Positions 13,131-45,885 of a stretch of DNA of 64,000 nt are shown here, piece after piece. Under the pieces are notes generated by a model, which had not been told where the DNA came from, did not search any database, and worked only from the letters and a program-made list of their open reading frames with translations. The position numbers were made by a program, and so were the translations under genes. Origin of the DNA: an uncultured Bacteroidota bacterium (GTDB lineage: Bacteria > Bacteroidota > Ignavibacteria > UBA10030 > UBA8401); NCBI GenBank assembly GCA_963717445.1, contig OY970334.1:965798-1029797 (forward strand), in the 5' to 3' direction. The stretch's first letter is position 1. Each line of letters opens with the position of its first letter.

Positions 13131-13296
13131 AACATCCTCCTTGGTGTGACATGGAATAAATCGTGAGCTATGTGGAACCGAATTCATTTTAGCCAAATTG
13201 TTTCTACCTATGAACATCGAATATTGAACGATGCACTTTGAGCGATCACCTCCTCCCAGCAATGTTGAATTCAGTGAATACTTGCTATGGTTCGTT

Positions 13297-16314: not shown

Positions 16315-16406
16315 AGTGCTCTCCGTAAAAGTATTGGCGCCAATCTGTAGAGCGCCAACGATAAGGTGAATTGATGATAACTCTCCTCCTCGCCTCTTAT
16401 CTTCCA

Positions 16407-30447: not shown

Positions 30448-31671
30448 TCATTTGCCTCCCCGGAGTGTACTGGGCGCTTGTCCTTTTTCGATTTCTATGG
30501 CGGCAAGAAGAAATGCGCCGATGCCCCGCAGGTCGTTTGTTCTCCTCGGCACGCCGGTATAATATTCATAGCTTCCGTTGCGGTACGGCTGATTTCCAAG
30601 TCCAACGCTCCCGCATACCTCATGCAAACCGATATCACCGTTCTCATCGGTCGTCGTGAAATGTTTCACTATCCCTTCAAAGGACTCCCGCGCCGCCGCG
30701 TAGAACTTCTTGTTTAGGTATCCTTTATTTGCACCTTTCGCAAAAACATAGGTGAACATTGCAGACGCCGACGCCTCCTGAAAATTTTTCGTTTTTCCCG
30801 GCTTATCAACTACTTGCCACCATAATTTTGAATCTGCATCGCGGAATGCCAGGATTGCGTCCGCCAATCGGCGGAGAATGCCGATCAGTTTTTCGCGTTG
30901 AGGATGATCCTCCGGAAAATAATCGAGCACATCCACCAGTCCCATCGCATACCAACCCATTGCACGTCCCCAAAAACTCGGCGAGGTACCGCTTTTGGGA
31001 TTTGCCCACCGTTGCTGTTTACTTTCATCCCAGCCATGGTAGAGAAGTCCGGTCGCAGAATCGCGGACATGCTTTTCCATCCAAATAAACTGATGTGCGA
31101 TATCATCAAAGTCCTCGGGCTCGTTGTAGTATGCTGCGTAGATTGCATAGAATGGTTCTGCCATGTAAAGACCGTCAAGCCACATCTGGTTTGGATAAAT
31201 TTTCTTGTGCCAGAACCCGCCTTCGTGAGTTCGCGGCTGTTCGCGGAGCTGCATCCGCAGCGCGTCGACAGCATTCTTGTACTTCTGCTCCCCAGTGCTT
31301 TTCTGAAGATAGAGCAATTGCCTTCCCGAAGCGATGAGATCAAGGCTGTAGTCTGTCATCGTATATGTTCTTATCCTGCCATCATCATCAAGGAAATAAT
31401 CGAGATTTTGTCGCATGCGGTCAAAATATTTTTTATTTCCCGTTGTCTGCCACATTTGATACAATGCCTCAAAAATCACCGCCTGGTCGTAATTCCATTT
31501 CAGTGTTCTTTTTTCCGGCACGGCAAATATCGTATCGGGATTTGCCGCAAGGAAACTTTCGGCAATTCTCACCGACCAGGGAACTGCACTTTTGTTCTCG
31601 CCGCCGGGTGCAAGACCCCCGCACAGCAGGAGAAACACAAATATCGAACGTATGGTCCTCTTTGACTTCAT
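30448..31671 (-). CDS. Unsaturated rhamnogalacturonyl / glucuronyl hydrolase (GH105, YteR-like)
   Basis: Signal peptide, then the YteR-like alpha6/alpha6 core: NYDQAVIFEALYQMW, WLDGLYMAEPFY, WGRAMGWYAMGLVDVLDY. Confidence 0.75.
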   Translation of the reverse strand: MKSKRTIRSIFVFLLLCGGLAPGGENKSAVPWSVRIAESFLAANPDTIFAVPEKRTLKWNYDQAVIFEALYQMWQTTGNKKYFDRMRQNLDYFLDDDGRIRTYTMTDYSLDLIASGRQLLYLQKSTGEQKYKNAVDALRMQLREQPRTHEGGFWHKKIYPNQMWLDGLYMAEPFYAIYAAYYNEPEDFDDIAHQFIWMEKHVRDSATGLLYHGWDESKQQRWANPKSGTSPSFWGRAMGWYAMGLVDVLDYFPEDHPQREKLIGILRRLADAILAFRDADSKLWWQVVDKPGKTKNFQEASASAMFTYVFAKGANKGYLNKKFYAAARESFEGIVKHFTTTDENGDIGLHEVCGSVGLGNQPYRNGSYEYYTGVPRRTNDLRGIGAFLLAAIEIEKGQAPSTLRGGK

Positions 31672-31676
31672 CTATA

Positions 31677-33446
31677 TTATCGCATGAGGAGAAGTTTGAT
31701 AGACTGCTCTTGACCGCCGGCATTTAGCCTGCAAATGTACACTCCACTTGCCCAGCGATCCGCTGAAACCAGCACGCTGTATTCGCCCGGACCGCGAACA
31801 CCCTGGTCGAGGAGGGAGATTTTCCTTCCGAGGATATCGAAAAACTCCAGTACTGCATGCATCGTTGCAGAGAGTCGATACCGGACTATTGTCGCAGGGT
31901 TAAATGGATTCGGATAATTTTGATACAGCTCAAAAGCGGCTGGAACCAAGCTTCGTCCGGCGGGCACAGCAGTTGGCGTGCCGGCCAGTTCGTTGAGATA
32001 TTCTTCGAGTTTGGTGTATCCGCTCGCGTCAACGATATTCCGGTCTAAAGGATCGTACGGGTTCAAGCCGTGTGCGATTTCCCATGTATCGGGCATGCCG
32101 TCATGATCAGAATCGGGCGGAGCAGGGAGCGAATTAAGCACCGGCCAGCCCCCGACATCGCTTTGGGAATCAATGATACCATGAGGAACGGTTGTATCAA
32201 GACCGTTGCTTATTTCATACGCATGAGTATGGCCGCTGTATGTTGCGGTCCGATGTGCAACTTCGTACACAATTCGGCTATCTATCGTGTCGCGCTTCGG
32301 GAGCGTGGCGCCCGCATTCGCTAACACGAGCGTATATGCATCCTGCGGCGAATTTGTTGTCACTTCGGGAAAAGGAAATGGAGTAAATGCTTGTGCGGTG
32401 CTCATCCTGAAACCGGAGTATTGCGGCGCAACCCCTTTCCAGTTGTCGTAGGTGACCGCTGTGTCCCCGTCAACATAATTTCCGGCGATGTAAAACGTAC
32501 CTGTTGAATCACCCGATCCGTATGGGTTAAAAATTCTGCTCTTCACATCGGCTTTCGTAGCGGGTCCGTATTTGTAATAATTGTTAACGATATTGATTTC
32601 GCTCTCCTCACCTCCATACGAACTGTTAAAGCCCCAGTTGTAAATCACGTTGTTCCGGAAATCGAGATTCTGCGAAGAGTCTGTGCCCGAGCCTGCCGGA
32701 GTTGGTCCGGAGAAGCGCGGGTTTCTGCTCGAGTGGTGAGCGAATAAATTGTGATGGTACGTCGAATTGAAACCTCCCCAAATTCCGCCGTAGCCGTGAG
32801 CTCCCTTTGGATCGTAACTATTATAAAGGCTTTCGCTGATAAGACACCACTGGATCGTGAGACTGTCATATCCGTAAAATGAAAGGGATTCGTCGAGACT
32901 CCAACTTGCAGAGCAATGGTCAACGATAATATCTTTCTTGTTGTGTGAAATTTGACTATACCCGTTGATCGCATCGTCAACAGGCTTGCCGGCTCCCTGA
33001 TCGCCGAACCGGGATCGGATGTATCGGATAATAACTTGATTCGCGCTGACGTTGAACGTGAAATTTCTCAGGCAGATTCCGTCTCCCGGAGCAGTCTGGC
33101 CGGCTACCGTGATTGAATCTTTCGTAATTTTCAAAGGCTCAACCAGTGCGATAGTGCCTGAAACGCGGAAGACAACGGTCCTCGCCCCGCTCTGATTGAT
33201 TGCCCATCGAAGTGTGCCGACAACGTTGGTGGCGGTCGTGTCGAGTAGCGTCGTTACTTCCAGCACTTTCCCGCCACGTCCGCCCCATGTGTACATTCCG
33301 CCCCCCTCCGCTCCGGGAAAGGCAAGTTGCTGCGGAAAGACCGATGGCACAGCAACGCACAACAGCATCACTGACGGCAACAAAATCCTGAACCTATTAC
33401 GACAAACCATGGTTTCCTTCATTTGAGAAACAAAGAGGTGCAACAC
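31677..33446 (-). CDS. Pectate lyase (PL1-like) with type A T9SS C-terminal domain
   Basis: AFPGAEGGGMYTWGGRGGKV...TLRWAIN...RTVVFRVSGTI...VAGQTAPGDGI is the PL1 N-terminal signature. The C-terminus reads LYQNYPNPFNPATIVRY...GVYICRL...IKLLLMR. The true start is probably an internal ATG (MKETMV or MVCRNRF, ~33410-33422). Confidence 0.75.
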   Translation of the reverse strand: MLHLFVSQMKETMVCRNRFRILLPSVMLLCVAVPSVFPQQLAFPGAEGGGMYTWGGRGGKVLEVTTLLDTTATNVVGTLRWAINQSGARTVVFRVSGTIALVEPLKITKDSITVAGQTAPGDGICLRNFTFNVSANQVIIRYIRSRFGDQGAGKPVDDAINGYSQISHNKKDIIVDHCSASWSLDESLSFYGYDSLTIQWCLISESLYNSYDPKGAHGYGGIWGGFNSTYHHNLFAHHSSRNPRFSGPTPAGSGTDSSQNLDFRNNVIYNWGFNSSYGGEESEINIVNNYYKYGPATKADVKSRIFNPYGSGDSTGTFYIAGNYVDGDTAVTYDNWKGVAPQYSGFRMSTAQAFTPFPFPEVTTNSPQDAYTLVLANAGATLPKRDTIDSRIVYEVAHRTATYSGHTHAYEISNGLDTTVPHGIIDSQSDVGGWPVLNSLPAPPDSDHDGMPDTWEIAHGLNPYDPLDRNIVDASGYTKLEEYLNELAGTPTAVPAGRSLVPAAFELYQNYPNPFNPATIVRYRLSATMHAVLEFFDILGRKISLLDQGVRGPGEYSVLVSADRWASGVYICRLNAGGQEQSIKLLLMR

Positions 33447-33465: not shown

Positions 33466-34998
33466 TTACTTTACCAGCATCATGCGCTTGATATCAACCG
33501 AACTGCCGGCTTGAATTCTGCAAAGGTAAATTCCCGAGCTGAGCCTCGACGCATCGAACGACAAAGAATAAACTCCTGCACTTTCATAACCGGAGAACAA
33601 GGTCATTACCTCCTGCCCGAGAATATTGAAGACCTTCGCTGTAACAAAAGCAACTCGCGGAATGCCGTACGATATTTTTGTCGACGGGTTGAAGGGGTTA
33701 GGATAATTCTGGTCGACAAAAAATCTTTGCGGGAGCGACGCCCGATCCGCCGGAACGAGCGTGACCGGGATCTTCAAGATTCCCCCCCCGTATGAGATTG
33801 TCGCATTCGGGCCGAGTGTGAAAGGAATCGTATTGTCGAACTGGCCCGCCGTCAGAGTGAGAATCCCGTTGATGGTCGTTGCCTGAGAAAGCGTAACGCC
33901 CATTGCGTTATTGATCGTCAGGTTGTTGACTGTGGCAGGCATGAGCAATCCCGTCACCTGCGCCGAATCGCCATCAAACGTGTAATTGGCAGCACTGCTC
34001 AATATCTTTGCCCCTCCGTTGTTGAGGTTCCCCTCGAAACCTTTTGGAGATCCTGTGATCAATGTCCCGCCAGCTTCAAGCGTGAAACGAATATAGGCGC
34101 TTGCGCCGAAAGAGCTGGTATCCATATCGACGATCGCACCGTTTCGAATGTCGAAATAGATGTTCGACATTGAGCCGACTGAGCCGGCCTTGACAAACGA
34201 TTGCAATTTCGTTCCATTGATTATTAACGAGTCGGGTTTCGTCGAATCGGAATTTGTAGTAAATGTTCCACCGAGTGCGCCAATATTTCCTCCAACAAAC
34301 CAGTTACACGTAGCTCCGCTTCCATTCGCGAGCTGGAATTTTCCGTTTGAGATAATGCTGCCTTTGAGATTGACTACCACAGTGTCTATACCACTTGAAC
34401 CAGTCGCAGTAAGGTAGCCGGTTGAATCATCGATGACTATGTCGCCGTCAATAGTAACTGTCTCGAACGTTGGTGCAACTCCACTCGCTGTGAAACGGAA
34501 CGCTTGCGAGTTTGATTTCATAACCCTCACGGTTCCCCCGATTGTATTCCCGTTCATCGCAAGGTTTAATCCCGCACTCTGACCAGGGCAGTTCCATGTC
34601 AGGTTGTAGAAATTTTGATTGCCGTTTGAAGGTGCTTTGCTCGTGACGCTATCGATGAGGCAGGTCGAACCTGTGCCCCACGTTGCCTTGGGAAGCATGC
34701 CGCCGTTGATGTCATGCTCATAAATTCCATTGTTGCCGAATACGACCTTCGAAGAATCGAATGTGCCAATTCTTCCGCTGAACGATCTCAGCGTGCCTGT
34801 GATTGTGACAGGAACATCCAAATAGATGGAGTCAGTGCTCTGAATGGTGATCGTCCCCGAACCTGTCGGAACGTTTCCCCCTGTCCATGTCGCCGACGCG
34901 CTCCAGTTCCCGCCTCCCGTTCCGTTGCTTGTCTGCGCAACGCCGAAACCGTAGCAGAGGAGCAAGAGCATTCCTGCAATAAGTTGCGTTCGTTTCAT
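33466..34998 (-). CDS. Secreted protein, a single copy of the module duplicated in 20693..24526, with type A T9SS C-terminal domain
   Basis: NGTGGGNWSASATWTGGNVP...KATWGTGSTCLIDSVTS...QNFYNLTWNCPGQSAGLNL parallels ...ATWKTGSTCLITGITSS...QAFYNLTVNCPSWSGNLNL in the 1277-aa protein. The C-terminus reads VDQNYPNPFNPSTKISY...GIYLCRI...IKRMMLVK. Confidence 0.6.
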   Translation of the reverse strand: MKRTQLIAGMLLLLCYGFGVAQTSNGTGGGNWSASATWTGGNVPTGSGTITIQSTDSIYLDVPVTITGTLRSFSGRIGTFDSSKVVFGNNGIYEHDINGGMLPKATWGTGSTCLIDSVTSKAPSNGNQNFYNLTWNCPGQSAGLNLAMNGNTIGGTVRVMKSNSQAFRFTASGVAPTFETVTIDGDIVIDDSTGYLTATGSSGIDTVVVNLKGSIISNGKFQLANGSGATCNWFVGGNIGALGGTFTTNSDSTKPDSLIINGTKLQSFVKAGSVGSMSNIYFDIRNGAIVDMDTSSFGASAYIRFTLEAGGTLITGSPKGFEGNLNNGGAKILSSAANYTFDGDSAQVTGLLMPATVNNLTINNAMGVTLSQATTINGILTLTAGQFDNTIPFTLGPNATISYGGGILKIPVTLVPADRASLPQRFFVDQNYPNPFNPSTKISYGIPRVAFVTAKVFNILGQEVMTLFSGYESAGVYSLSFDASRLSSGIYLCRIQAGSSVDIKRMMLVK

Positions 34999-35086: not shown

Positions 35087-36574
35087 TTACCAAGGAATGC
35101 CGTAGGAAAAATCGGCTACAATGGTATGCCGGATGTCTCCATTGATGCTGATGGCGTCCGCCCATGTATCGGTGTACTTCATGTTCGAATACTCATACGC
35201 GAGATTGACAGTCCCCCCAGCGATCATGACGCCGACGCCGAAAGAATAGACCGAATAGGTCACCGGTTCTCCTTCAAGAGGATTTCCTTCCGGCTCGTAC
35301 ACTTCGGCTTCTTCTCTAGCACCACCACGCAGCATAAGCCAGGAGAACGCAGAGAATTCAAACCCTGCGTGAAAAAGATTTGCCGACAACCACGGATTTG
35401 TCGTCGACCCTGTGGAATTGGTGAACGTCGTCGAAGCGTATGGTCGAATTTCATATCCCATACCGAGCAACAAGTTTTCCCTGAGAGCGATGGATATCCC
35501 GAGCGTACCGCGGAAGGGAATAACAGTTTTATCCTGGCCGCTGATGATCTCGGTCCTCGATGAGCCTGTAGTGTCAGTTTGAATTTCGGTATTGAATTTC
35601 CGCGTGATCGTTGTTGGAACTTTTGCCGAGAAGCCCAGGGTTACATAGCGGCTATGGTATAATCCGCTGAACGTGATTTCTTGGCCGCTGTAATCCAACG
35701 TCCCGGTGGAGATGACCCGGTTATAGATTGAATCCAGCCGGAAATACGAACTATAAAATATCAGCTTTCCCCGGTCGACTCGCGACTCAAAATCATTGCT
35801 GCTTCCGCTCAGAATCATTCCGCTCACGCCGATTGAAATCTTCTCGGAAAGCGCCGCGGAAAGAGCGAGGCCGTAGCCGTAAATCGAACCTACGCGCGAT
35901 TGGATATTCTGATACCATTGAACCGGTATCGCCAGTGAGTCGCTATTGTTGGCAGGAATAGTCAACGTACCGTTCTTCACGGAAAGTATGGATGGAGATA
36001 AAACATTGTTGTTCTGGAAATACCAGTCGAGGTCCGCATATTCGACCGAACCGATCCCTACGCCGAACTTCATTCCATTGAAAGTAAAGGGGAAGCCCGC
36101 AAAGCCCTGAACGGAAGGTATTTTCGACTTCGCATGAGACCAGTTTGGACCGATGTTGTCATACGGACGTTGAACCGTATCCCCCGCGTTGTACGTTGTT
36201 CCAGTATCGTACTTTGGGGTACTAATATAACCGGTCAATCCTTCCATAAGGAGGCTGAAGTTCGAGTAATATTTCAGGGGGGAGTATTGTTGCGTCTGCT
36301 CTTCACTCGACGAAAGTTGGTAATCACCGATTGAGACCTGAAGTCCCTGGAGCGACTGCAACGAAGCAGGATCGCTGAACATCAGACTGACATCGTTCCC
36401 TAGGCCGATAACGATGCCCCCGGCTCCGCGCGAAGCAGCCGACTGCGGGGTAAAATGGTCAAGCCCCTGAATCGTCAACGGCTGGCCGAAGCCCTGCGCA
36501 AAGATATTCGGCACAGCAAGGAATAACAGCAACAACATCTCGAAAAATAGGAATATCGAAAAGCATCGCTTCAT
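35087..36574 (-). CDS. Outer-membrane beta-barrel protein, FadL/PorV-like
   Basis: Signal peptide, then AASRGAGGIVIGLGNDVSLMFSDPASL, the FadL/PorV-type N-terminal motif. The rest alternates amphipathic strands and ends FSYGIPW. Its start codon shares a base with the stop of the upstream barrel gene. Confidence 0.45.
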   Translation of the reverse strand: MKRCFSIFLFFEMLLLLFLAVPNIFAQGFGQPLTIQGLDHFTPQSAASRGAGGIVIGLGNDVSLMFSDPASLQSLQGLQVSIGDYQLSSSEEQTQQYSPLKYYSNFSLLMEGLTGYISTPKYDTGTTYNAGDTVQRPYDNIGPNWSHAKSKIPSVQGFAGFPFTFNGMKFGVGIGSVEYADLDWYFQNNNVLSPSILSVKNGTLTIPANNSDSLAIPVQWYQNIQSRVGSIYGYGLALSAALSEKISIGVSGMILSGSSNDFESRVDRGKLIFYSSYFRLDSIYNRVISTGTLDYSGQEITFSGLYHSRYVTLGFSAKVPTTITRKFNTEIQTDTTGSSRTEIISGQDKTVIPFRGTLGISIALRENLLLGMGYEIRPYASTTFTNSTGSTTNPWLSANLFHAGFEFSAFSWLMLRGGAREEAEVYEPEGNPLEGEPVTYSVYSFGVGVMIAGGTVNLAYEYSNMKYTDTWADAISINGDIRHTIVADFSYGIPW

Positions 36575-37611
36575 TATATTTGCGCTCCCAGGCTGATGCG
36601 ATGAGCGCTTCCCAGATATGTCCCCATCGATCCGTAGCTGTAATCGAGAGAGAGTTTTACAGAACCAACAGCTTGCTTCACTCCACCACCGACCGTCAAT
36701 CCTTCATAATCGTAATTGAACTTATACCCTGCTCTCAGTGCAAAAACGCCGGCGAACTCATACTCCACTCCGAGGTGTTCTTGCTGTTCGTAATCATTCG
36801 GCTGGTAGAGGTCAAAGGCGACGCCAATACGATTCTCCTCGTCGGTAGCCAGCAATGCATCTTTTCCAATCAGGTCTGCTGCAACTCCCCACCGGAAGAG
36901 GAGAGGAACAGGGCTGGATTGTATTGCATACGTGACGTTCGGTCCAAAATTCTGAACGGACGCGCCGATTTGAACCGATCGAAAACCAGTGTTGTATCGA
37001 ATTCCAAAATCGTAGATCACTCCGCTGGCCCACGTTTTCACTTCCTCAAACGAACCCTGACTTACCTGGGCCAAAACCATCTGCCCATTGTATAAAGATT
37101 CATGAGCATATTTTACCGTCAACCCTGTTGAAAATTTGTCGGTGAGGCTTCGCGCATAGCTCAACCCCACAAGATAACTGAACGGGTGGAACGTGTTCCC
37201 GGTCAATCCCGGGTTGACTTCCTGATTGATATACGGACGCGTGGCAACAGCTTCATCAAATTCTCCATAATCAACGTATTGAATCTGGAGGCCGAGCGCG
37301 CCAAGATTCCCGATCGGTGTAGCGTATGACAACGCTCCCTGACGCGTATCAAAAATCCATTGGATAAAGGTCGACGAAAATTCCTGAGTTTCCACGAGCG
37401 CCAGACCGCTCGGGTTCCAAAAAACTGCGTCGGCCCCTGACGCCCAGACACTGTATGCGTCGCCTAATGCAGTTGCTCTCGCAACGGGCATCACTTCCAA
37501 AAATTGCATCGAAGTGCTTCCGACTTTTTGTGAGAATGCATTAGACGATAACATGGCTAAAGCGACAATCGGCAAGGAGTTTTTTATCATTCTGTTCATC
37601 GTTGCGATCAT
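36574..37611 (-). CDS. Outer-membrane beta-barrel protein, FadL/PorV/PorP-SprF-like; candidate partner of the adjacent type-B sorting-domain protein
   Basis: Signal peptide, then ARATALGDAYSVWASGADAVFWNPSGLA. About 345 aa and ends in an aromatic-rich strand. It lies 5 nt downstream of the type-B sorting-domain gene. Confidence 0.45.
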   Translation of the reverse strand: MIATMNRMIKNSLPIVALAMLSSNAFSQKVGSTSMQFLEVMPVARATALGDAYSVWASGADAVFWNPSGLALVETQEFSSTFIQWIFDTRQGALSYATPIGNLGALGLQIQYVDYGEFDEAVATRPYINQEVNPGLTGNTFHPFSYLVGLSYARSLTDKFSTGLTVKYAHESLYNGQMVLAQVSQGSFEEVKTWASGVIYDFGIRYNTGFRSVQIGASVQNFGPNVTYAIQSSPVPLLFRWGVAADLIGKDALLATDEENRIGVAFDLYQPNDYEQQEHLGVEYEFAGVFALRAGYKFNYDYEGLTVGGGVKQAVGSVKLSLDYSYGSMGTYLGSAHRISLGAQI

Positions 37612-37615
37612 CCGA

Positions 37616-39859
37616 TCAATGAATTATCACAAATTTACCATGCGCTCTCTCCCCGGTCGCTGCATCATCCACGGTAAAGAAGTAAACGCCGGAGGCCATC
37701 AGTTGATTATTCCTCGTGATCTGGAACCATTCCTGAGAATACCCTGACGTTGGCGGAGTATCATGCAGAATCGTCTGGACGAGCGCGCCGCTGTAAGAAA
37801 AAATTCTGATCGTACACTTTTGCGTCAGACCGAAAAATCCGATCATGTCGTTGAAGTCACCGTTGGTTGATGTTCCGACAGCGCCGTTTGTCACGATAAG
37901 CGGATTTGGAACAACCCACACTTTGCCGAGCGTTGTCGCTGCCGGACTTTGCGTGTTGTGCAATGTAAGATTCGTTACTCCGCTTCTCATCCCGAGCGCA
38001 TCGACCGAGTAGATAATATAGTACGCGTCTTCGCCGGCATTGCTATCGCGGTCATAGAGCAAGTAGGTGGAATCTCGCCAGTAGCGTGGATCTTTTTTCC
38101 CAACGCTGTCCATCAAAGTCCAGGGGCCAAGTGCGCTTATAGAACGATATGCCAGGTAATAGCTGAAAGGAGCATGCAGTTTCTGAGTCGTGAATGATTC
38201 CACCTCGTCTCCCCAGAGAATCCTGTTGACCCCGGCGCTTGTATTTTCTACTGTGAACACCGGTGCAGGCACCGGTATAGGAATCGAATTTGCGTACTGC
38301 CCGGTCTGGGGCGTGAACCGCGGATCGAATTGAACCGAATCATACTTCACCGGTTTGGCTGAACCCGTGTACATTTGTATCGCCCTGTCGGCCACATCTC
38401 TGATTGATACAACGCCGGGAGTGACATACCAGGGCAGTTCGTGAGTCTGAAGATATGTGCTTCCAATGACAGGAGGATTGCCGCCGGCAGACCCGTAGGT
38501 CAGTATGTTGTACCAGCTCGAGACGGGGTGAAAAACGTTCCCCGATGTCTCGACACCGCCTCCCATGTCGATGTAGACTGTATCACCGGCATCCCCTGCG
38601 CCATAACCCACTACCTCCGCAATTGTAAAGTGAAGATGTTCATTCGGTGGAAAAGTGTACGGCCCGAAAACATATCCGTGAACTACTGGTTGCTTCCAAC
38701 CAAGATTTGAGGATGGTTTAGCCCTTCCTTTCCAATACGCCCAGTCGTTTGCATTACCTGGGTAGAAACTTGTCGAATCCGCTGTCCCGCCGAATGCTTG
38801 AGTCTTGCGCGTAACAATATCGGTCCATGATTCTATCTTTGTGATATCGACATTCCGATTTTCGTAGCGATTGGTATATGGCTGTTTGAGCCGGTTCGTT
38901 TCATCCCACACGTAAGCACTGTCTGCCGCCGCTGGATAATTCGTCTGACCTCGCACAGCAAGATGATCATGATCATAGTACAATGGAAGGAAACCCACCG
39001 CCTGCGGCGAGTCCAACCCACCCCGATCACCGGGTTCGGACCAGAGGTCAAAAAAATCAGGGTCGGGTTTGCCGATTCTCTCTTGATTGTATGACATCCA
39101 ACGCTTCAAATCAAAGCGAGCGTACATATCCTTTGCTCGCATATCATTGCTTTCCGACCATTCGTTGTATAACCTCTCGTACCCGAACATCGAGGGGCAC
39201 AGTCCGTATCCCCATCCAACAAATGCATCGGTGATAGGGTCGGAGTTTGTGCTTACCAAATCGTATTCATAAATAATGAAACAGTTGTATCCCGGATAAC
39301 TCCATGCCCTGCTCGTTCGCGTCACTGAAATATTGAGGGGAGTGGTCCACGTCGCCACGATAATTTCCTCAGCCTCGTTGGGATTGTATGCCGGATTCAG
39401 TGATCCGTTTTCTAAGACCGGAAAATTTTCCGTGCGGGATATCGATCCTGGAAAACTGTAAACGCCCGCAACCGGAACCGTTTGACCGTCGCCCGCAGTC
39501 GCAATGGCACCACACGCGACAGTTTGGCGCGTTCCGTCAAGTGCCCCTGCAAGGTAAAGCCCGCCTCCCATGGAATTGTGCTGCCCCGCATATTCTCTTT
39601 TGTTGATGATGAGTCGGGAATTCGGCGGCCATTCCATCGATGAAAAACCGGCGGTCATTCCTGTTTGTCCGCCATCGAAAGCCCTTCCTAACTCACCGGT
39701 GTTATAGACAGTCTGATGAAGCATACTGCGGGTGTGAGTTTGGGGAGTCCGGTCTTGCGCACGCACAACCGAAACAAAGAGCGTCAGGAAAGCAAAAATC
39801 GTTGCTGATATTTTCATAGTCATGCCCTGCATCAGATTCCAGGCATACTCAAAATTCAA
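37616..39859 (-). CDS. 747-aa secreted protein of unknown function with type B T9SS C-terminal sorting domain
   Basis: Signal peptide MKISATIFAFLTLFVSVVRAQ. The C-terminus VVPNPLIVTNGAVGTSTNGDFNDMIGFFGL...CTIRIFSYSGALVQTIL...GVYFFTV fits the type B pattern PNxxxPNGDGxND...IFNRxG. No catalytic motif I recognise. The start overlaps the upstream TonB receptor by 11 nt. Confidence 0.55.
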   Translation of the reverse strand: MNFEYAWNLMQGMTMKISATIFAFLTLFVSVVRAQDRTPQTHTRSMLHQTVYNTGELGRAFDGGQTGMTAGFSSMEWPPNSRLIINKREYAGQHNSMGGGLYLAGALDGTRQTVACGAIATAGDGQTVPVAGVYSFPGSISRTENFPVLENGSLNPAYNPNEAEEIIVATWTTPLNISVTRTSRAWSYPGYNCFIIYEYDLVSTNSDPITDAFVGWGYGLCPSMFGYERLYNEWSESNDMRAKDMYARFDLKRWMSYNQERIGKPDPDFFDLWSEPGDRGGLDSPQAVGFLPLYYDHDHLAVRGQTNYPAAADSAYVWDETNRLKQPYTNRYENRNVDITKIESWTDIVTRKTQAFGGTADSTSFYPGNANDWAYWKGRAKPSSNLGWKQPVVHGYVFGPYTFPPNEHLHFTIAEVVGYGAGDAGDTVYIDMGGGVETSGNVFHPVSSWYNILTYGSAGGNPPVIGSTYLQTHELPWYVTPGVVSIRDVADRAIQMYTGSAKPVKYDSVQFDPRFTPQTGQYANSIPIPVPAPVFTVENTSAGVNRILWGDEVESFTTQKLHAPFSYYLAYRSISALGPWTLMDSVGKKDPRYWRDSTYLLYDRDSNAGEDAYYIIYSVDALGMRSGVTNLTLHNTQSPAATTLGKVWVVPNPLIVTNGAVGTSTNGDFNDMIGFFGLTQKCTIRIFSYSGALVQTILHDTPPTSGYSQEWFQITRNNQLMASGVYFFTVDDAATGERAHGKFVIIH

Positions 39860-42800
39860 GAATCAGTCCGAAATTATAGGACCGTGGTGAATTGTCATAA
39901 ATCAAAAACGACTGATCGACGGGGAACGAAGTGGCTTTTATCGAATTCGTCGCATTCCAATAGAGCACGCCGTGCTGCGGGTCGTTGATCGTATAGTTTT
40001 CGTACGGCTGAATATTTGGGTTCGTCTCTCCCGCATTCGTTGCTGCAAACAGGTAATCGTAATTAAGAATCTTGTCGTTGAAGACGTTGAACACCTCAAT
40101 GTAAATCGTTCCCTTCGTACCGAAGAAATCATCGATCGTTCTCGTCAATCGCAAATTTGTGTTATATTCCGCCGGCGTCCGAGCACCGTTAATAAGCGTG
40201 ACATCTTTGGAAGAAGTGTAGGGACGACCACTCCGGGCAAAAGAACTAAGAGAAAGGGTAAAATTTTCAAGCGGACGCCCGCCGAACATCTCCGGCCCAA
40301 ACTCCTGCGGCGTGGTGTATTCGAGTGTGATGATAAGATTGTTCGTCCTGTCGAAATCGAGAAGGATATCCCTGCTGGGAACGTCGGACAAATCCGTCGT
40401 CACCTCGCCGAGCGAATCTTTTCTGAAAATCGGCGGCGCGCCTGAAACTGTTGCGCTTTTGCCCGTCGCAACGCTATACTGATAGCCGATCGTTCCCGTA
40501 AAGTTTCCTTTTCTTTTTGCTAATGTTGCACGGAATCCTCTGATATCGGCATAGTCCCTATTGTAGTATGTGTTGTACGTAACTGCGCTTGTGACGTCGG
40601 TGAAGGTCGCCTGCTCGATAAGGTTTTTCACATCTTTGTAGTACCCGCTCACGTCGAGCGTGAACCCCTCCCCCAACCCTTGCATGACCCCGATATCGTA
40701 ACTGTTGGTCGTCTCGGGCTCGAGCCGGGGATTTCCCAGCGTGACAGGAGTATTGAATTGTGGTTGCACCGTTGTCGCAACGATGTATTGAAATGAAGGC
40801 CTTTGCATGAACGAGCCGTAGTTGAGATGAAAAACCGTGTTAACGGAAACGGGAAACGAAATGCCGGCCCGGGGTTGCAACCGTCCTATGAGGGGTGTTC
40901 TTGCTCTTTCGGCATCCACGATACTTCTCGCAACGACATGGCCGGAGTCGTTCACGATAGCGAACGGGTCGAACTCATTCACAAAGTAATCTTGGTTTGA
41001 ATTCCACATATCGAACCGCAAGCCGATGTTCGCAATCATCCCTTCAAATTCCATCTTGTCTTGGACATACAGTGCCCCTTCGACCGGCTTGGCAGAGTAA
41101 TTTGCTTGCTGGAGTGTGGAGCTGGTGTTGATATTGTCGTCAGCTTGGATTGAGTACGAATTGACCTGGATGCCGCCATTGAGCAGATGCGACTTCGTCA
41201 CTTGACTTGTGAGAGAAGCTTCGAAAGAGACTGTCAGCGTTTTCTCATCTCTGAAGTCGTCGTTTCCTTTCAGGTACGTGAAAAGGTCTGGCCCGGTTAC
41301 AGGAGCCGTGATGACTGTGTTTGTGTTTTCCGGATTCACGATGAGGGAATCGGGAAGTGAGCTAGGCCATGGAGTAGAACCGAGGTTCAGCTTTGTTGAA
41401 AGAGCATTCATTTTCAGTTCGTAAAACGTGCTGGGGCTAAGGGTTTTCGAGAAACGTGCCCCCATTTGCCCGTTCTCCGTTTCTTGATATTCGATGCCGA
41501 GCGTCCTATCCCACAACCAGTTGTAGAAGCCGAGGCCATCGGAACTCGGGAAAACATTTGTGTTGCCCATGGAATAGCCGCCACTGACGAGCAACACCGC
41601 ACCCCCTCCAAAATCGGTAGAGATGTTTCCCATGAACTGCCGGTCTACGTCAGGTTGCTGGGTTGGGAATTCCGGATTGACGACGTTTGAACGCATCGCA
41701 ACGAACATCGTCATCATATCGTTGAGCGGACCGCCCGAGCTTCCTTCCACAGAGTAATCGATGTTATTTCCATAGTCTTGGAAGAGGTCTCTTTTCATCT
41801 GCATACGCCAGAGCGTGTACGCTACTTGAAGCATCACGGCCGTATCCTGAGCGTAACGGTTTATAAGTCCCGAACCCATGCTTGAGATCAGCGGTTGGTT
41901 GCTGTTTTCAGGATCACCGGTCAACCAAAAATTCTTGTTGAGTAACTTTGAGAGATACGGATTGCCGGTCGTATCATAAACGCTTGGCCCAAAGGTCTTT
42001 CGCCCCGGCGCTCGAACCCGAGCCTCAACAGTCGTCCTCCATTTGTCCGGCTTTCCTTCCTTCATCGTGATATTGACAACTCCGGACTGGGCGTTTCCAT
42101 ACTGGGCCCCGAACCCGCTCGTGACAACTTCTACCTCCTCCACTGCGCTCAAGATGGGAATGAATGCCGATGTGGCGTCAAACGGGTTGACAATTCCCAT
42201 CCCTTGCAGTGTGTAATATTCTTCGCCGGTCCGACCGCCACGAAAATGGCCATCGGTAACATCGGCAGCGAGGCCGATGACATCTGTAACATCCCTCATC
42301 CCGGCAATTTGTTTCACATCATCGGTCCGGACAATTTCGCTCGTGGAAGTTTTTTCAGGTTGAACGTCGGGCCTCGTTGCAACCACTTCTACAACTCCTT
42401 GCGTCAGGGTTGTCGATGAGAGAGAGAAATCGACCGTCGTCGTTCTATCGGAGTTAATGATAACTCCATGCTCAAGCACCTTCTGGTAGCCGACGATTGA
42501 GGCCTCAACGTCATAGACGCCCGGAACTAAATTCAAAATAAAGTATGATCCATCGACATGTGTTGCCGCTCCCAATTTTGTGCCGACGATAACGACATTG
42601 CAGCCGATGAGCGGTTCCTTCGTATCGCGGTCGACAATAGTCCCTGAAAGTTTCCCGACAGTTTGGGCAGAAAGTGAACCGGCGGTGAAAATCAGAATGG
42701 CAATGATGCAGAGGAGAATCCGATTCTTCTCAAGGCCATAGCAACACCGACGGTAAATCATTAAACCATTGGCACGATGCATCGTTCGAACACCATCCAT

Positions 42801-42869
42801 GCTCATAGTTCGTTTTCTCCGGGGGGAGTCATTGTATCGTGACGGCTCCGTGGTTGATGTTCGGACCAT
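39849..42869 (-). CDS. TonB-dependent outer-membrane receptor (CarboxypepD_reg + plug + barrel)
   Basis: Signal peptide, then TVGKLSGTIVDRDTKEPLIGCNVVIVGTKLGAATHVDGSYFI (CarboxypepD_reg-like), a plug, and a long barrel ending ...NFGLILEF with a C-terminal aromatic. The track start is over-extended; the real start is probably MIYRR or MSMDG. Confidence 0.8.
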   Translation of the reverse strand: MVRTSTTEPSRYNDSPRRKRTMSMDGVRTMHRANGLMIYRRCCYGLEKNRILLCIIAILIFTAGSLSAQTVGKLSGTIVDRDTKEPLIGCNVVIVGTKLGAATHVDGSYFILNLVPGVYDVEASIVGYQKVLEHGVIINSDRTTTVDFSLSSTTLTQGVVEVVATRPDVQPEKTSTSEIVRTDDVKQIAGMRDVTDVIGLAADVTDGHFRGGRTGEEYYTLQGMGIVNPFDATSAFIPILSAVEEVEVVTSGFGAQYGNAQSGVVNITMKEGKPDKWRTTVEARVRAPGRKTFGPSVYDTTGNPYLSKLLNKNFWLTGDPENSNQPLISSMGSGLINRYAQDTAVMLQVAYTLWRMQMKRDLFQDYGNNIDYSVEGSSGGPLNDMMTMFVAMRSNVVNPEFPTQQPDVDRQFMGNISTDFGGGAVLLVSGGYSMGNTNVFPSSDGLGFYNWLWDRTLGIEYQETENGQMGARFSKTLSPSTFYELKMNALSTKLNLGSTPWPSSLPDSLIVNPENTNTVITAPVTGPDLFTYLKGNDDFRDEKTLTVSFEASLTSQVTKSHLLNGGIQVNSYSIQADDNINTSSTLQQANYSAKPVEGALYVQDKMEFEGMIANIGLRFDMWNSNQDYFVNEFDPFAIVNDSGHVVARSIVDAERARTPLIGRLQPRAGISFPVSVNTVFHLNYGSFMQRPSFQYIVATTVQPQFNTPVTLGNPRLEPETTNSYDIGVMQGLGEGFTLDVSGYYKDVKNLIEQATFTDVTSAVTYNTYYNRDYADIRGFRATLAKRKGNFTGTIGYQYSVATGKSATVSGAPPIFRKDSLGEVTTDLSDVPSRDILLDFDRTNNLIITLEYTTPQEFGPEMFGGRPLENFTLSLSSFARSGRPYTSSKDVTLINGARTPAEYNTNLRLTRTIDDFFGTKGTIYIEVFNVFNDKILNYDYLFAATNAGETNPNIQPYENYTINDPQHGVLYWNATNSIKATSFPVDQSFLIYDNSPRSYNFGLILEF

Positions 42870-44439
42870 ATTGTATATCTATGTTCGATTTTGACCCGGT
42901 CAAGTTCATCAGAATTACGTCTCTCGTTTTTCGTCCGTCGGCATAAACCATGGGCAATATTCCGCCGAACGTTTGCATACCGTTCACATTGATCTTTGAA
43001 CAATCAAGAATAGAAAGGAGCGGTCCCCATTCCGGCCGTACAGCAATGTTTCTGAACTCAATCATATCGGCATCACTACAGGCGATCCCTTTGGTCGAAA
43101 CGATAGCGATGCTGTCGAACGTGACATCCTCAACCGGCATTTCCGGTAGACCCAGAATTTCGATCGCTGCTTTCTTTCCGTACGAGCACGAAATATTCGA
43201 ATAATGAATGTCTCTGATTCTCGGTGTAGCGTTTGTCACCGCTTCGGCGGGAAGCCGGCTCCCTGTGTAGAGCATATTGATTCGGAGTGCCTCTTGCTGG
43301 ACAGTATCCGCAGAGAGGTTACGGAACCACATTTTTTCGACCGTCCCGCCGCGCCCTCGCGCAGTCTTGATTCGGACAATGCGTTCAGTTCCATGAAAAC
43401 GGCAATCAAAGGCATAAACGTTGCGAATGCCCCCCAACGTCTCGCTCCCGATGACGATACCTCCGTGTCCTTGTAGTCCTACACAATGACGTATGACGAC
43501 ATCCTCTGTCGGAACGTCCACGCGCATGCCATCTTTATCCCGCCCTGATTTAATCGCTATGCAATCGTCGCCCGTGCAGAATTCGCAATATTCAATCAAG
43601 ACATTCTTGCATGAAGAGGGATCGACACCATCGCCGTTCGGCGTGCGGCCGTATGGCCCATCCGTAATAATCTTCACTTTACGAACGATGATGTTCTCGC
43701 AGTATGTAGGAGTGATGGTCCAAAAAGCGCCGTAAAGAAATGTGACACCCTCGACCAGAATATTGCTGCAATTCATCGGCTGGAAAAATGCAGGCCGCAG
43801 AACTCTTCCGTCGGTTCCGTCAAACACCCGTTCTCGAATCGGCACATTCTTGTCGACCATCATCGCGAGTTCCTGTGAACCTTTCTTGGAATTCTTCCAA
43901 TTCCACCAAGGCTTTCCCTGGCCATTGAGGGTGCCCTCTCCCGTGATCGCAATGTTGGTTTTGTGATCGGCGTAGATGAAAGCGGAATATTTGTAGCATT
44001 CCGTGTCCTCATGTCGCGAGAATACAGCGGGCAGATAATCGTTCGGATCCTGACTAAAAAGAAGTTCAGCCCCCTTTGCAATGTAAAGGTCAACGTTGCT
44101 CTCCAGGTGAATGGCTCCCGTTAACCATCGCCCCGCTGGAACAACGACCCTTCCTCCCCCCGCTTTGGAAGCGGCGTTGATCGCTTTGCGAATTGCTTCC
44201 GTGTTTTTTACCACGCCCCCTTCCTTTGCACCAAATTCTCTGATATTGTAAATTCTATCCGCGAAAAAAGGGCGAGCAATTTGAGGCATTTCAAACGGAG
44301 CCTCAATGGGAAGGATTTGGTCGGGAGCGCCCGAGAGAAGAATTCCGGGCTGTTGGGCTAATGCTTGAACGAATCCGTAGAAGAAAAGCGAGGTCGCCAG
44401 ACGAGAGTGGAGATATTGTGTCCGGTGCAGAATCATCAT
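42829..44439 (-). CDS. Glycoside hydrolase family 28 (polygalacturonase / rhamnogalacturonase-like)
   Basis: NGDGVDP, GDDCIAIKSG, GHGGIVIGSE and RIKT are present. It has a signal peptide. Confidence 0.75.
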   Translation of the reverse strand: MMILHRTQYLHSRLATSLFFYGFVQALAQQPGILLSGAPDQILPIEAPFEMPQIARPFFADRIYNIREFGAKEGGVVKNTEAIRKAINAASKAGGGRVVVPAGRWLTGAIHLESNVDLYIAKGAELLFSQDPNDYLPAVFSRHEDTECYKYSAFIYADHKTNIAITGEGTLNGQGKPWWNWKNSKKGSQELAMMVDKNVPIRERVFDGTDGRVLRPAFFQPMNCSNILVEGVTFLYGAFWTITPTYCENIIVRKVKIITDGPYGRTPNGDGVDPSSCKNVLIEYCEFCTGDDCIAIKSGRDKDGMRVDVPTEDVVIRHCVGLQGHGGIVIGSETLGGIRNVYAFDCRFHGTERIVRIKTARGRGGTVEKMWFRNLSADTVQQEALRINMLYTGSRLPAEAVTNATPRIRDIHYSNISCSYGKKAAIEILGLPEMPVEDVTFDSIAIVSTKGIACSDADMIEFRNIAVRPEWGPLLSILDCSKINVNGMQTFGGILPMVYADGRKTRDVILMNLTGSKSNIDIQYGPNINHGAVTIQ

Positions 44440-44741
44440 TGATTGTCACTCTCACGCTGTACCAAGGTTCATTAGGCCTGTTGCTTAATGGTAAAAAATG
44501 AATCTTTATGATTTGCTTTGTGGGATCGGGACCCGCTCGTTGTGGAGATGAATGAGTCGCGCTTACATTACTATTATAGGCTGCCCCATATAGTAGCTAC
44601 TATGTTGAGAATTGTGATGTAGGCTGGAGCATCTCCCTATGAGCAATACAGAATGATTTTACTACGCTATGACTGCCGGACAACTCGCGAAAAAGAGAAT
44701 ATTGAGGGTTTCGATGAAAGTTTTGGAAATTATGGGCAAAC

Positions 44742-44784
44742 TTTACTTTATCGTTTACTTTACCGTTTACTTGCTTGGCAAGCA
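44742..44784 (-). promoter_or_regulatory. Conserved upstream motif, tandem degenerate copies (TTTACTTTATCG TTTACTTTACCG TTTACTTGC) followed by the palindrome TGCTTGGCAAGCA, ~300 bp upstream of the GH28 gene at the head of the 24.6-44.4 kb gene array
   Basis: Read directly from the sequence. It shares the ATCGTTTACTTTACCG core with copies 1 and 2. Confidence 0.4.
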
Positions 44785-45162
44785 TACAAAAGATTTTATT
44801 GTATGTCAAGTCTTTTTTTAAAAAATCACTTTTTTTATAGCTATCGGAAATCCACAGCGGGGACAACCGGACCCATGCAAACATGGATTGTTTTGAGGGG
44901 GCAAATCAATATGAGCTTGGTTTTTAACGCCCTAATGTCCATGTGATTTCGAGCGGGCATACTGCAGCACGATGAAAGAAGTGAACGATGACTGTCCAGA
45001 AGAAGCTTGAAGCCTTTCGACGTTCTCGACTTGAGGTGCGTTCAAATATCTATACTTCTTATCGTAATAGGATCAGTCATACCAAAAGCAATAATTTTAC
45101 ACGGCCATATTTCAATACATCCTCACAATGTCCACGCTCAAAAATGGTACTGTTCGAATGTA

Positions 45163-45804
45163 TTACTTCGTCGATGCATAATACCCGCACACCGTATTCA
45201 CCACGCATTCTTCGCATTTTGGATTTGTCGGACGGCAAATTTCCCGGCCGAGAAAAGAAAACGCCATCCCCGCATCATTCCAATTTTCCCGGGGGAGAAC
45301 TTCCATGAGCTGGTTCTCAATTTTTTTGGGGTCCGTTCCGGCTGCAACGCCGAGCCTCGGCGCGACACGAAGAACATGCAAGTCTACAATAATTCCTTCC
45401 GCTTCGCCTCCCGATTCACGGATGATGACGTTGGCGGACTTTCTTCCTATACCGGGAAGCGAAGTCAACGCATCCATTGTTGCCGGAATTTTATCGTCGC
45501 TGCCGACAGTTTTCGCAAGAGTCATGAGCCACTTCGTTTTGTTCGCAAAATTCCGGACTTTTCCGATGAATTTAATCAACTCATGAGATTTCGCTTTCGC
45601 GAGCTCTTTCATCGATGGGAATGCTTTAAACAACGCCGGCGCGAGTTCATTGATATGCTTATCGGAATCCTGCGCGGAAAGAATCACCATCACAAGCAAT
45701 TGGTAGCGGTTGTTGTAATCAAGCGGATGCTTTTTCCCTTTATATTTTTTAAAGAGAAGCTGAAGTGCGTCAGCCCAATTCACAATACGGGATTGTTTAG
45801 CCAT
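45163..45804 (-). CDS. nth: Endonuclease III (DNA glycosylase / AP lyase)
   Basis: HhH-GPD blocks LLVMVILSAQDSD and LPGIGRKSANVII, plus the C-terminal 4-Cys [4Fe-4S] cluster CxxxxxxCxxC...C. ATG verified at 45802-45804. Confidence 0.85.
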   Translation of the reverse strand: MAKQSRIVNWADALQLLFKKYKGKKHPLDYNNRYQLLVMVILSAQDSDKHINELAPALFKAFPSMKELAKAKSHELIKFIGKVRNFANKTKWLMTLAKTVGSDDKIPATMDALTSLPGIGRKSANVIIRESGGEAEGIIVDLHVLRVAPRLGVAAGTDPKKIENQLMEVLPRENWNDAGMAFSFLGREICRPTNPKCEECVVNTVCGYYASTK

Positions 45805-45885
45805 AACACGCGTTCCTTTCAAATGTTAATGAAATCTATTGGCCCCATTCTTCCCTTGAAGAGGAGGGATAAAGGGAGGGCTCCT

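Follow-up and report, generated by a model that had tools for sequence, protein, structure and literature searches.

The 64,000-nucleotide stretch of DNA analysed here (the window) carries a minus-strand locus that we read, with a probability of roughly 55% for the reading as a whole, as a pectin (polygalacturonate) utilisation locus, in which a four-gene set (a TonB-dependent receptor, a 747-aa ORF referred to as P747, and two outer-membrane barrels) forms an outer-membrane uptake core that is not built from SusC and SusD. In the model that fits best, P747 would be a T9SS-tethered, receptor-associated surface protein, analogous to SusCD and mechanistically different from it. The features concerned are listed below (positions in the window).

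42829..44439, minus strand: opening gene of the block, a galacturonidase/polygalacturonase of family GH28 (130.9 bits with Pfam Glyco_hydro_28; 332.8 bits with NCBIfam alpha-D-galacturonidase, short of the equivalog cutoff)
39849..42869, minus strand: TonB-dependent receptor, 1006 aa, with N-terminal CarboxypepD_reg (CarbopepD_reg_2, 50.7 bits)
37616..39859, minus strand: P747, secreted non-lipoprotein (signal peptide; AlphaFold model; more than 600 full-length homologues)
38300..39754, minus strand: P747 N-terminal domain, galactose-mutarotase-like beta-supersandwich, about residues 36-520
37946..38299, minus strand: P747 FN3-like domain, about residues 521-638 (approximate boundaries)
37619..37945, minus strand: P747 variant T9SS C-terminal domain (CTD), residues 639-747
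36574..37611, minus strand: PorV/PorQ-family barrel, 345 aa, proposed dedicated carrier/anchor of P747 (NF033709, 213.9 bits)
35087..36574, minus strand: B495, FadL-fold outer-membrane barrel, 495 aa (assigned by fold)
33466..34998, minus strand: 510-aa protein, N-terminal domain of no assigned family, canonical type A CTD (TIGR04183, 38.5 bits; cutoff 23)
31677..33446, minus strand: pectate lyase with canonical type A CTD (PDB 9buj pectate lyase, E 4.9e-69; TIGR04183, 28.7 bits)
30448-31671, minus strand: GH88 unsaturated galacturonyl hydrolase, conserved at the block end
29338-30405, minus strand: LacI-family regulator, conserved at the block end

The four core ORFs lie where the first-pass annotation had placed them, all on the minus strand. 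The GH28 and receptor ORFs overlap by 41 nt, which probably reflects an over-extended receptor start; the true start is likely Met37 (about 42761), yielding the signal peptide ...ILLCIIAILIFTAGSLSA/Q. The 11-nt overlap previously described between the receptor and P747 requires a TTG start at 39859; the likely start is instead the ATG at 39817, favoured by the homologue consensus and by the signal peptide MKISATIFAFLTLFVSVVRA/Q (cleavage ...MKISATIFAFLTLFVSVVRA/QD), which leaves a 31-nt gap and probably gives a protein of 733 aa. The spacer between P747 and the PorV-like gene measured 4 nt (formerly given as 5 nt), and the sharing of one base by the stop of the PorV-like gene and the start of B495 was found as described (TAATG at 36574). 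When the 33-46 kb interval was scanned for promoters and terminators, the counts equalled the shuffled expectation, and thus carry no information on the operon limits.

The arrangement of the block is more than chance, being kept in 79 orthologous loci of several FCB lineages (Ignavibacteria, Calditrichia, KSB1, Rhodothermales, and unclassified Bacteroidota MAGs). Among the loci with enough flanking sequence, the order was colinear, with the receptor upstream in 69 of 70, the PorV-like gene directly downstream of P747 in 67 of 67, and the FadL-like gene downstream in 62 of 62; in most of the 79 loci the gene for the 510-aa type A CTD protein, for which no PDB relative was found, lies directly 3' of the FadL-like gene. 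The cultured Roseithermus sacchariphilus also bears the block (CP030158, about 1.614-1.637 Mb). A paralogous four-gene block (L078) is found within a locus of PL17/heparinase-type, GntR, SDR, and MFS genes that resembles one for alginate or another polyuronate; the same MAG has a pectin copy as well (L076), and two single MAGs have two copies of the module each.

The 1006-aa protein belongs to the TonB-dependent receptor superfamily by partial profile matches, namely over residues 532-798 to TonB-hemin (72.8 bits), and to the plug regions of several receptor models. The window receptor itself scored no match to the Plug and barrel models of Pfam; among its homologues, those at 47% identity (L078) and at 25-39% identity (L083, L085, and L089) match PF07715 (Plug) and PF00593 (TonB_dep_Rec_b-barrel). 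It is outside the SusC family: the SusC/RagA model (TIGR04056) gave 37.3 bits (cutoff 368.25), and the match was confined to residues 73-186 in the N-terminal extension. A second receptor in the window (13297-16410) is followed by a gene for a canonical-tail protein, without a PorV-like gene; by pairwise comparison, the two receptors are similar in the N-terminal extension only, and the 718-aa protein after the second one is unrelated to P747.

P747 had been described as having no recognisable catalytic or SusD fold, and this holds: no catalytic or SusD family was matched in Pfam or NCBIfam, and no catalytic match was obtained among PDB sequences. Its full-length homologues have 52-92% identity. 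The structure of P747 alone was predicted with AlphaFold as all-beta (pLDDT 86.9, pTM 0.87). It is not of the SusD/RagB type, having no SusD-family match, a beta-supersandwich followed by FN3 and a beta-sandwich tail, and a signal peptide without cysteine.

The tail of P747 (VVPNPL, an insertion of about 17 aa, then CTIRIFSYSG...ASGVYFFTV...GKFVIIH) was assigned to type B in the first-pass annotation, with anchoring by PorP/SprF-type partners. This assignment fails, since Pfam CHU_C (PF13585) gave 14.9 bits (E 0.03; cutoff 27), and TIGR04131 was absent from P747 and from the family members (0/36), against 26/36 for TIGR04183 (E<=0.01) and 34/36 for the PorZ C-terminus; PF18962 matched 5/36. 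Several homologues are labelled 'T9SS type A sorting domain-containing protein' by NCBI, a profile of the P747-family tails matches all six canonical type A CTDs of the window (E 1e-10 to 5e-15), and the sole PDB sequence match of the tail is the PorZ CTD (5m11). Note that the window P747 itself had no match to the type A models (TIGR04183 and PF18962) at E<=0.1, and this sub-threshold tail counts against the best-fitting model. Relative to the canonical type A reference motifs (NYPNPFNP ... GVYFYRL ... KKxxLxK), the family tails differ systematically in PNP[LFY] with a 15-25-aa insertion, in CTIRIY, and in the GKFxII[HKR] end. Judged from these profile and motif comparisons, the P747 tail belongs to a distinct, divergent subclass that is homologous both to type A CTDs and to PorZ-like ones. 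A type B cargo would be consistent with the sub-threshold CHU_C matches in P747 and, at a best E of 2e-4, in 14 of the 36 relatives, with the superficial resemblance of the post-PNP insertion to the type B 'PNxFTPNGDGxND' region, and with the precomputed PF11751 (PorP_SprF) matches beside PorV in a few PorV-like orthologues; against the tail results above, and against a barrel that passes the PorV/PorQ model without a PorP_SprF match, it is very improbable.

Both downstream genes encode FadL/PorV-fold barrels, as proposed earlier. The 345-aa barrel is a member of the PorV/PorQ family (NF033709, cutoff 90, model positions 1-325 of 326; Pfam PorV, 37.5 bits, cutoff 27), and forms a separate subfamily because it scores below the equivalog cutoffs of both PorV (NF033710, 77.2 vs 250) and PorQ (NF033711, 83.7 vs 220). 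The search for a PorP/SprF partner (PF11751) was negative for either window barrel at E<=0.1. Since the barrel is of the PorV/PorQ family, the precedent is PorZ-PorQ or PorU-PorV, rather than SprB-SprF. The matches listed in the homologue search with the PorV-like protein were all close (63-100% identity). Pairwise comparison detected no sequence similarity between the 345-aa and 495-aa barrels, which are therefore not recent duplicates, and among the loci covered, B495 was confined to the module's pectin/alginate subfamily. Thus, of the receptor, T9SS-tailed protein, and anchors that the first-pass annotation had brought together, one conserved module of receptor, non-catalytic tailed protein, and barrels stands, and the type B and PorP/SprF specifics do not.

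The class of tail changes with the gene neighbourhood. Three paralogues of the N-terminal domain outside the blocks (L061, P0019/L088, and P0070) bear a canonical type A tail (PF18962 above cutoff, ending in ...KKLLLLK), and have no receptor or PorV-like gene among their neighbours. In the same loci, conservation was 56% for the P747 tail vs 56% and 39% for canonical tails; the P747 tail is conserved no more than these, and so gives no independent conservation support for tail retention. The barrels might instead be diffusion channels that act independently and admit oligogalacturonides or hydrophobic compounds, with P747 an ordinary cargo of the general PorV/PorU and the linkage due to co-regulation only; dedicated porins such as KdgM in the pectin loci of other bacteria count in favour of this. 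However, the variant tail always has a PorV-like neighbour and paralogues without one have the canonical tail, characterised PorV/PorQ family members bind T9SS tails (PMC10202324), and the receptor, tailed protein, and PorV-like barrel co-diverge while adjacent in unrelated contexts, as described in the next paragraph; we consider independent channels improbable.

The wider superfamily comprises 877 50%-identity clusters in the library at E<=1e-10. The aligned distant full-length members have 20-30% mutual identity and share their N-terminal motifs as well as the FN3 domain and variant tail. In every distant locus sampled (L081-L087, L089, and L090), the protein is flanked by a CarboxypepD_reg/Plug receptor on one side and a PorV-like barrel on the other. 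These barrels have 27-33% identity with that of the window (E 1e-29 to 1e-46), and the gene contexts are otherwise unrelated (that of L087, PhoD/phosphodiesterase, is non-carbohydrate). Receptor, tailed protein, and PorV-like barrel co-diverge to about 25-33% identity and remain adjacent.

The same data bear on the possibility that P747 is a surface enzyme of a new polyuronate-active family (lyase, esterase, or similar), the products of which are merely imported by the receptor. Mean column identity across phylum-level lineages is 53-59%, and dozens of Arg, Glu, Asp, His, Trp, and Tyr positions are invariant, many of them in the N-terminal domain; the close family is found in two polyuronate loci (pectin and alginate-type), the free-standing paralogues with ordinary tails are expected for an autonomous enzyme, and several lyase and hydrolase families contain mutarotase-like sandwiches. 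Against an enzyme, P747 has no catalytic-domain match in Pfam, NCBIfam, or PDB sequences, and distant members sit between the receptor and the PorV-like barrel in non-carbohydrate contexts too (for example L087), which a receptor accessory fits better. We therefore regard an enzymatic P747 as rather unlikely. The very high conservation of the N-terminal domain with its many invariant charged residues, and likewise the free-standing ordinary-tail paralogues, fit an enzyme too and count against the best-fitting model.

In the preferred model, that of a tethered receptor accessory, the variant tail of P747 would be recognised by the adjacent PorV/PorQ-like barrel as its cognate carrier, and not by the general PorV; T9SS substrates are recognised at the translocon by cognate carrier proteins (PMC10994853). 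The tail would then be kept uncleaved on the PorV-like barrel, as the PorU tail is on PorV and the PorZ tail on PorQ; the latter tail is retained and bound, and cognate PorV-like barrels have been proposed to shield tails from cleavage (PMC10202324). Such retention would tether the beta-supersandwich and FN3 ectodomain at the cell surface next to the TonB-dependent receptor, where it may capture polyuronate chains or oligomers released by the T9SS-secreted pectate lyases and pass them to the receptor. A physical complex with receptor-P747 and tail-barrel contacts is suggested by gene order and co-divergence. The FadL-fold barrel is probably an extra structural subunit, like BamG on BamA, and not a fatty-acid channel; FadL-family proteins are transporters as a rule, which counts against a structural role for B495. 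BamG itself is a FadL-family barrel with the role of a structural pillar, which keeps a surface protein in place above a second barrel (PMC12611786).

More tentatively, variant CTDs held permanently by their own PorV/PorQ-like barrels may equip a large family of TonB-dependent transporters with accessory or 'lid' proteins tethered through T9SS, a general SusD-independent mode of nutrient capture across the FCB superphylum (hundreds of 50%-identity clusters) that would be reused for pectin, alginate-type, and non-carbohydrate substrates, sometimes with a BamG-like FadL fourth subunit. In classical Bacteroidota, glycan uptake is explained by SusC/SusD; to our knowledge, the coupling of surface capture to TonB import is largely unknown in Ignavibacteria, Calditrichia, KSB1, Rhodothermales, and related soil and sediment lineages. 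In the searchable literature, the coverage of which excludes subscription-only papers, no published description of the module was found, and it is apparently an undescribed and widespread alternative to the SusC/SusD capture pair. The idea that these lineages are entirely without SusD was rejected, since Melioribacter roseus (Ignavibacteria) has a SusCDE operon (PMC3534657); with SusCD in at least one member of Ignavibacteria, the module comes in addition to that pair and does not replace it throughout the lineage. If the model is true, T9SS cargo sorting and TonB-dependent uptake, which are usually studied apart, become linked, a new cognate tail/carrier pair is added to the T9SS repertoire, and the combination of receptor, variant-tail protein, and PorV-like gene may serve as a signature for uptake loci where SusD-based prediction fails.

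Compared with SusC/SusD (RagA/RagB), the module likewise has a long CarboxypepD_reg TonB receptor whose gene directly precedes that of a surface accessory protein, lies within a CAZyme locus that is substrate-specific and has a regulator of its own, and is reused across substrates. Unlike that pair, its receptor in the window fails the SusC/RagA model (37 bits vs 368), P747 is all-beta (supersandwich, FN3, and T9SS tail) whereas SusD is an alpha-helical TPR lipoprotein, the Sec type I signal peptide of P747 has no lipobox, so that the surface would be reached through T9SS (predicted) and not by lipoprotein export, and one or two FadL/PorV-fold barrels are added. The non-SusD lids of Bacteroides (BtuG, XusB, HmuY, DUF4249, DUF4625, and DUF4876) also have genes adjoining non-SusC TonB-dependent transporters, are conserved across families, and are predicted or shown to lie on the outer face (Price et al., bioRxiv 10.1101/2023.03.17.533168, in which T9SS and PorV are unmentioned); however, all are lipoproteins, whereas the tether of P747 would be a T9SS tail with a dedicated barrel.

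BamG (PDB 9n2d_B), the FadL-family BAM subunit of Bacteroidota, differs from B495, which is only 16% identical to it, is encoded in catabolic loci, and gives no sign of BAM association. In SprB-SprF, as in the module, the cargo gene adjoins that of its own FadL/PorV-like carrier barrel, which anchors the cargo at the surface (according to Gorasia et al. 2022, as cited in PMC10202324); the two systems differ in tail class and in barrel family, and P747 is linked to a transporter and not to gliding adhesion. In PorZ-PorQ and PorU-PorV, an uncleaved type A-like CTD keeps the protein on a PorV-family barrel, as is proposed for P747. Outside the tail, P747 is unrelated to PorZ or PorU, and the pair of P747 and its PorV-like barrel is not secretion machinery, because its genes accompany that of a TonB receptor in nutrient loci, in two copies per MAG in two MAGs; the tail itself has its best curated and PDB match in that of PorZ.

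Five ORFs are tightly packed on the minus strand of the window (35087-44439) and are listed here in gene order.

42829-44439, minus: GH28 enzyme
39849-42869, minus: 1006-aa TonB-dependent receptor with an N-terminal CarboxypepD_reg domain
37616-39859, minus: P747, a 747-aa protein with a T9SS tail
36574-37611, minus: PorV-like barrel, 345 aa
35087-36574, minus: B495, a 495-aa FadL-fold barrel

The last four genes are called the block, and the receptor, P747 and PorV-like barrel together the triad. The 11-nt overlap between receptor and P747 in the first-pass annotation requires a TTG start at 39859, whereas the consensus of 120 homologues (start at 'MK...', then a signal peptide) favours the ATG at 39817, which gives the signal peptide MKISATIFAFLTLFVSVVRA/QD and a 31-nt spacer between the two genes. 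Since this signal peptide is without a cysteine, P747 is no lipoprotein. Between P747 and the PorV-like gene lie 4 nt instead of the 5 nt previously given, and the stop/start base said to be shared by the two barrel genes is real (TAATG junction). That the receptor ORF reaches far 5', into the GH28 gene, probably also reflects the longest-ORF rule; matches to divergent receptor homologues start at about residues 46-68. Note that neither the Pfam Plug model nor the TonB_dep_Rec barrel model matched the receptor at E<=0.1, whereas its homologues matched both; thus, HMM-based annotation could under-call this receptor class.

Downstream of the block are further pectin genes, the first of which encodes a 510-aa protein; these include a pectate lyase with a canonical tail, that is, an ordinary type A T9SS C-terminal domain (PDB match 9buj, E 5e-69), GH88, a LacI regulator, a GDSL esterase, a second GH28 and a pectinesterase, and still further downstream the pectin/uronate genes PL9, DUF4861, UxaC, KduI and an MFS transporter. 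Given these pectin and uronate genes, the block belongs to a regulon for pectin/galacturonate that spans about 40 kb. The same regulon has a second receptor/cargo pair further downstream (11106-16410, minus), in which a 718-aa Ig-like protein (HYDIN/ASH, choice-of-anchor D-like) with a canonical type A tail comes after a Xanthomonas/Caulobacter-type receptor (TIGR01782, 341.9 bits); this Ig-like protein is unrelated to P747, and no PorV-like gene was found 3' of its gene in the window. On the other side of the block, about 1.4 kb of lower G+C (~0.45) without a convincing gene (44440-45885) separates the GH28 start from an AddB-like nuclease gene; it holds only weak overlapping ORFs (45163-45822, minus; 45007-46107, plus) and presumably the block's promoter and operator. 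The upstream neighbours (45886-51779 and 52613-55888, minus) are unrelated to the finding and comprise an AddAB-like pair (PD-(D/E)XK nuclease, 952 aa; UvrD-type helicase-nuclease, 1026 aa) and a Tricorn-like S41 protease of 1091 aa.

When each species was represented by one genome, a relative was found in 218 species, and the best 79 loci were studied; they span Ignavibacteria, Calditrichia, KSB1, Rhodothermales (including the cultured Roseithermus sacchariphilus) and unclassified Bacteroidota MAGs. With tblastn, and counting the loci whose flanks were long enough, a receptor homologue was found directly upstream in 69/70, a PorV-like homologue directly downstream in 67/67, and a B495 homologue downstream in 62/62. 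Other pectin genes lie within the flanks of most of the best 79 loci, and none in those of a divergent subgroup of three (L067, L078 and L079). There, a paralogous full four-gene block occurs (L078, 7133-14772, Ignavibacteriaceae MAG, CAZOMY010000011.1; also L079 and L067), and in L078 the neighbours are a GntR regulator, a heparinase II/III-type lyase (Hepar_II_III_N), a PL17-like lyase, an SDR and an MFS transporter, so that it looks like an alginate-type or other polyuronate locus; one MAG carries both the L078 copy and a pectin copy (L076). The 510-aa gene is immediately 3' of the FadL-like gene in most of the best 79 loci and is therefore a possible fifth conserved member. Its product in the window (33466-34998, minus) combines a canonical type A tail with an N-terminal domain without a match in Pfam, NCBIfam or PDB, and may be such a member or an unrecognised pectin-active enzyme.

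P747 outside its tail matched no family in Pfam or NCBIfam. Its predicted model (pLDDT 86.9, pTM 0.87) has three parts, a beta-rich N-terminal domain of ~490 residues, an FN3-like domain plus a beta-sandwich at the C-terminus, and contains neither a catalytic (alpha/alpha)6 barrel nor a beta-helix, in agreement with the first-pass statement that no catalytic fold is recognisable. The family is large (>600 homologues) and very conserved (52-92% identity over the full length among the 120 homologues listed), with many invariant Arg, Glu, Asp, Trp and Tyr residues. P747 could be a new surface enzyme for polyuronates, a reading that fits this high conservation and the autonomous paralogues described below; against it speak the absence of similarity to any catalytic domain and the occurrence of distant members in non-carbohydrate contexts.

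It was earlier proposed that P747 is type B cargo with a PorP/SprF-family partner; type B cargo has adjacent PorP/SprF carriers (PMC10202324). The curated models contradict both parts. The tail scored 14.9 bits with CHU_C (cutoff 27), which was sub-threshold in 14/36 relatives, and TIGR04131 matched none of the 36, whereas the type A model TIGR04183 matched 26 and the PorZ model, over its C-terminal part, 34; several homologues are named 'T9SS type A sorting domain-containing protein' by NCBI. Among PDB sequences, the family profile matched the PorZ tail (5m11) alone, and a profile of the last 106 columns matched six of six canonical type A tails in the window (E 1e-10 to 5e-15). Canonical tails read ...QNYPNPFNPST...ASGVYFYRL...KKMMLLK, and the tail of the P747 family reads VVPNP[LFY], a 15-25-residue insertion, RIxFxxL...CTIRI[FY]...ASGVYFF.V.D...GKFxII[HKR]; as judged from these sequences, the latter is a distinct subclass, called here the variant tail. 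As for the partner, the 345-aa protein matched NCBIfam NF033709 'PorV/PorQ family protein' (213.9 bits, cutoff 90) and was above threshold with Pfam PorV, was well under the equivalog cutoffs for PorV (77 vs 250) and PorQ (84 vs 220), and did not match PorP_SprF in the Pfam search. It is thus assigned by HMM as a PorV/PorQ-family paralogue, not PorP/SprF, and the description 'FadL/PorV-like barrels' was correct.

Three paralogues of the P747 N-terminal domain outside any block serve as a natural control.

L061, 10010-12232: free-standing ORF, 52% identity
L088, 212-2389: free-standing paralogue P0019, 63% identity
P0070: free-standing paralogue

None of the three has a receptor or PorV-like neighbour, and all three have a canonical type A tail passing Pfam PF18962; a Tricorn-like protease is also present near the L061 paralogue. 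The second receptor of the window fits here too, its cargo having a canonical tail and no PorV-like gene after it. Thus, no case examined had the variant tail without the dedicated PorV-like barrel, or the barrel without the tail. The two barrels could be independent channels, but this linkage of tail class to barrel argues against it.

An exhaustive profile search over 1.84 billion representatives gave 64 clusters at E<=1e-30, 877 at E<=1e-10 and 3568 at E<=1e-3, and many 600-800-aa proteins matched chiefly over the FN3 and tail part. A joint alignment of 55 sequences (18% mean identity) has in common the N-terminal motifs RGxLW, AWSxPxxDDFII and GPYxLxPGD, the FN3 motif and the variant tail. 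For nine distant proteins looked up, the gene lies between a receptor (CarboxypepD_reg/Plug TonB, ~960-1050 aa) and a PorV-like barrel (313-359 aa) wherever the contig allowed; tblastn with the window proteins gave 23-39% identity for the receptor and 27-33% for the PorV-like barrel (E 1e-29 to 1e-46), and the three components diverge together. Neighbouring genes at these loci are not pectin-related (e.g., PhoD, phosphodiesterase and LacI in L087). In two loci from a marine TARA metagenome (L081, 6351-7721; L082, 6244-7614), a GWxTD-domain protein (PF20094) replaces the FadL-like barrel after the PorV-like barrel, so the fourth subunit is variable; with the neighbours conserved and the fourth gene varying, the core is therefore the triad.

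The best-supported model is tail retention and tethering, for which we infer retention, a physical complex and ligand binding. P747 would be exported by the T9SS, and its own PorV/PorQ-like carrier would capture the variant tail and retain it, tethering a probable glycan-binding ectodomain beside the receptor, and B495 would be an extra structural subunit in the polyuronate subfamily. Three precedents come from known biology. At the translocon, a T9SS substrate is recognised by its cognate carrier and extracted in complex with it (PMC10994853). PorZ retains its tail, through which it is attached to PorQ, PorU is bound to PorV, and cognate PorV-like barrels are thought to shield tails from cleavage (PMC10202324). 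In BamG, a FadL-family barrel acts as a structural pillar, with a surface protein held over the neighbouring barrel (PMC12611786). The lineages concerned are not devoid of SusD, as Melioribacter has SusCDE (PMC3534657). Being widespread, modular and open to direct testing, the module is of substantial interest. In the literature (subscription-only sources excluded), no account was found in which a TonB receptor is linked to T9SS cargo and a PorV-like barrel. The module is not categorically new but a variation on two known themes, the accessory proteins of TonB-dependent transporters and anchoring by a cognate T9SS carrier; its functional parallels would be SusCD and the lids, lipoproteins in all cases, that serve non-SusC transporters (bioRxiv 10.1101/2023.03.17.533168).
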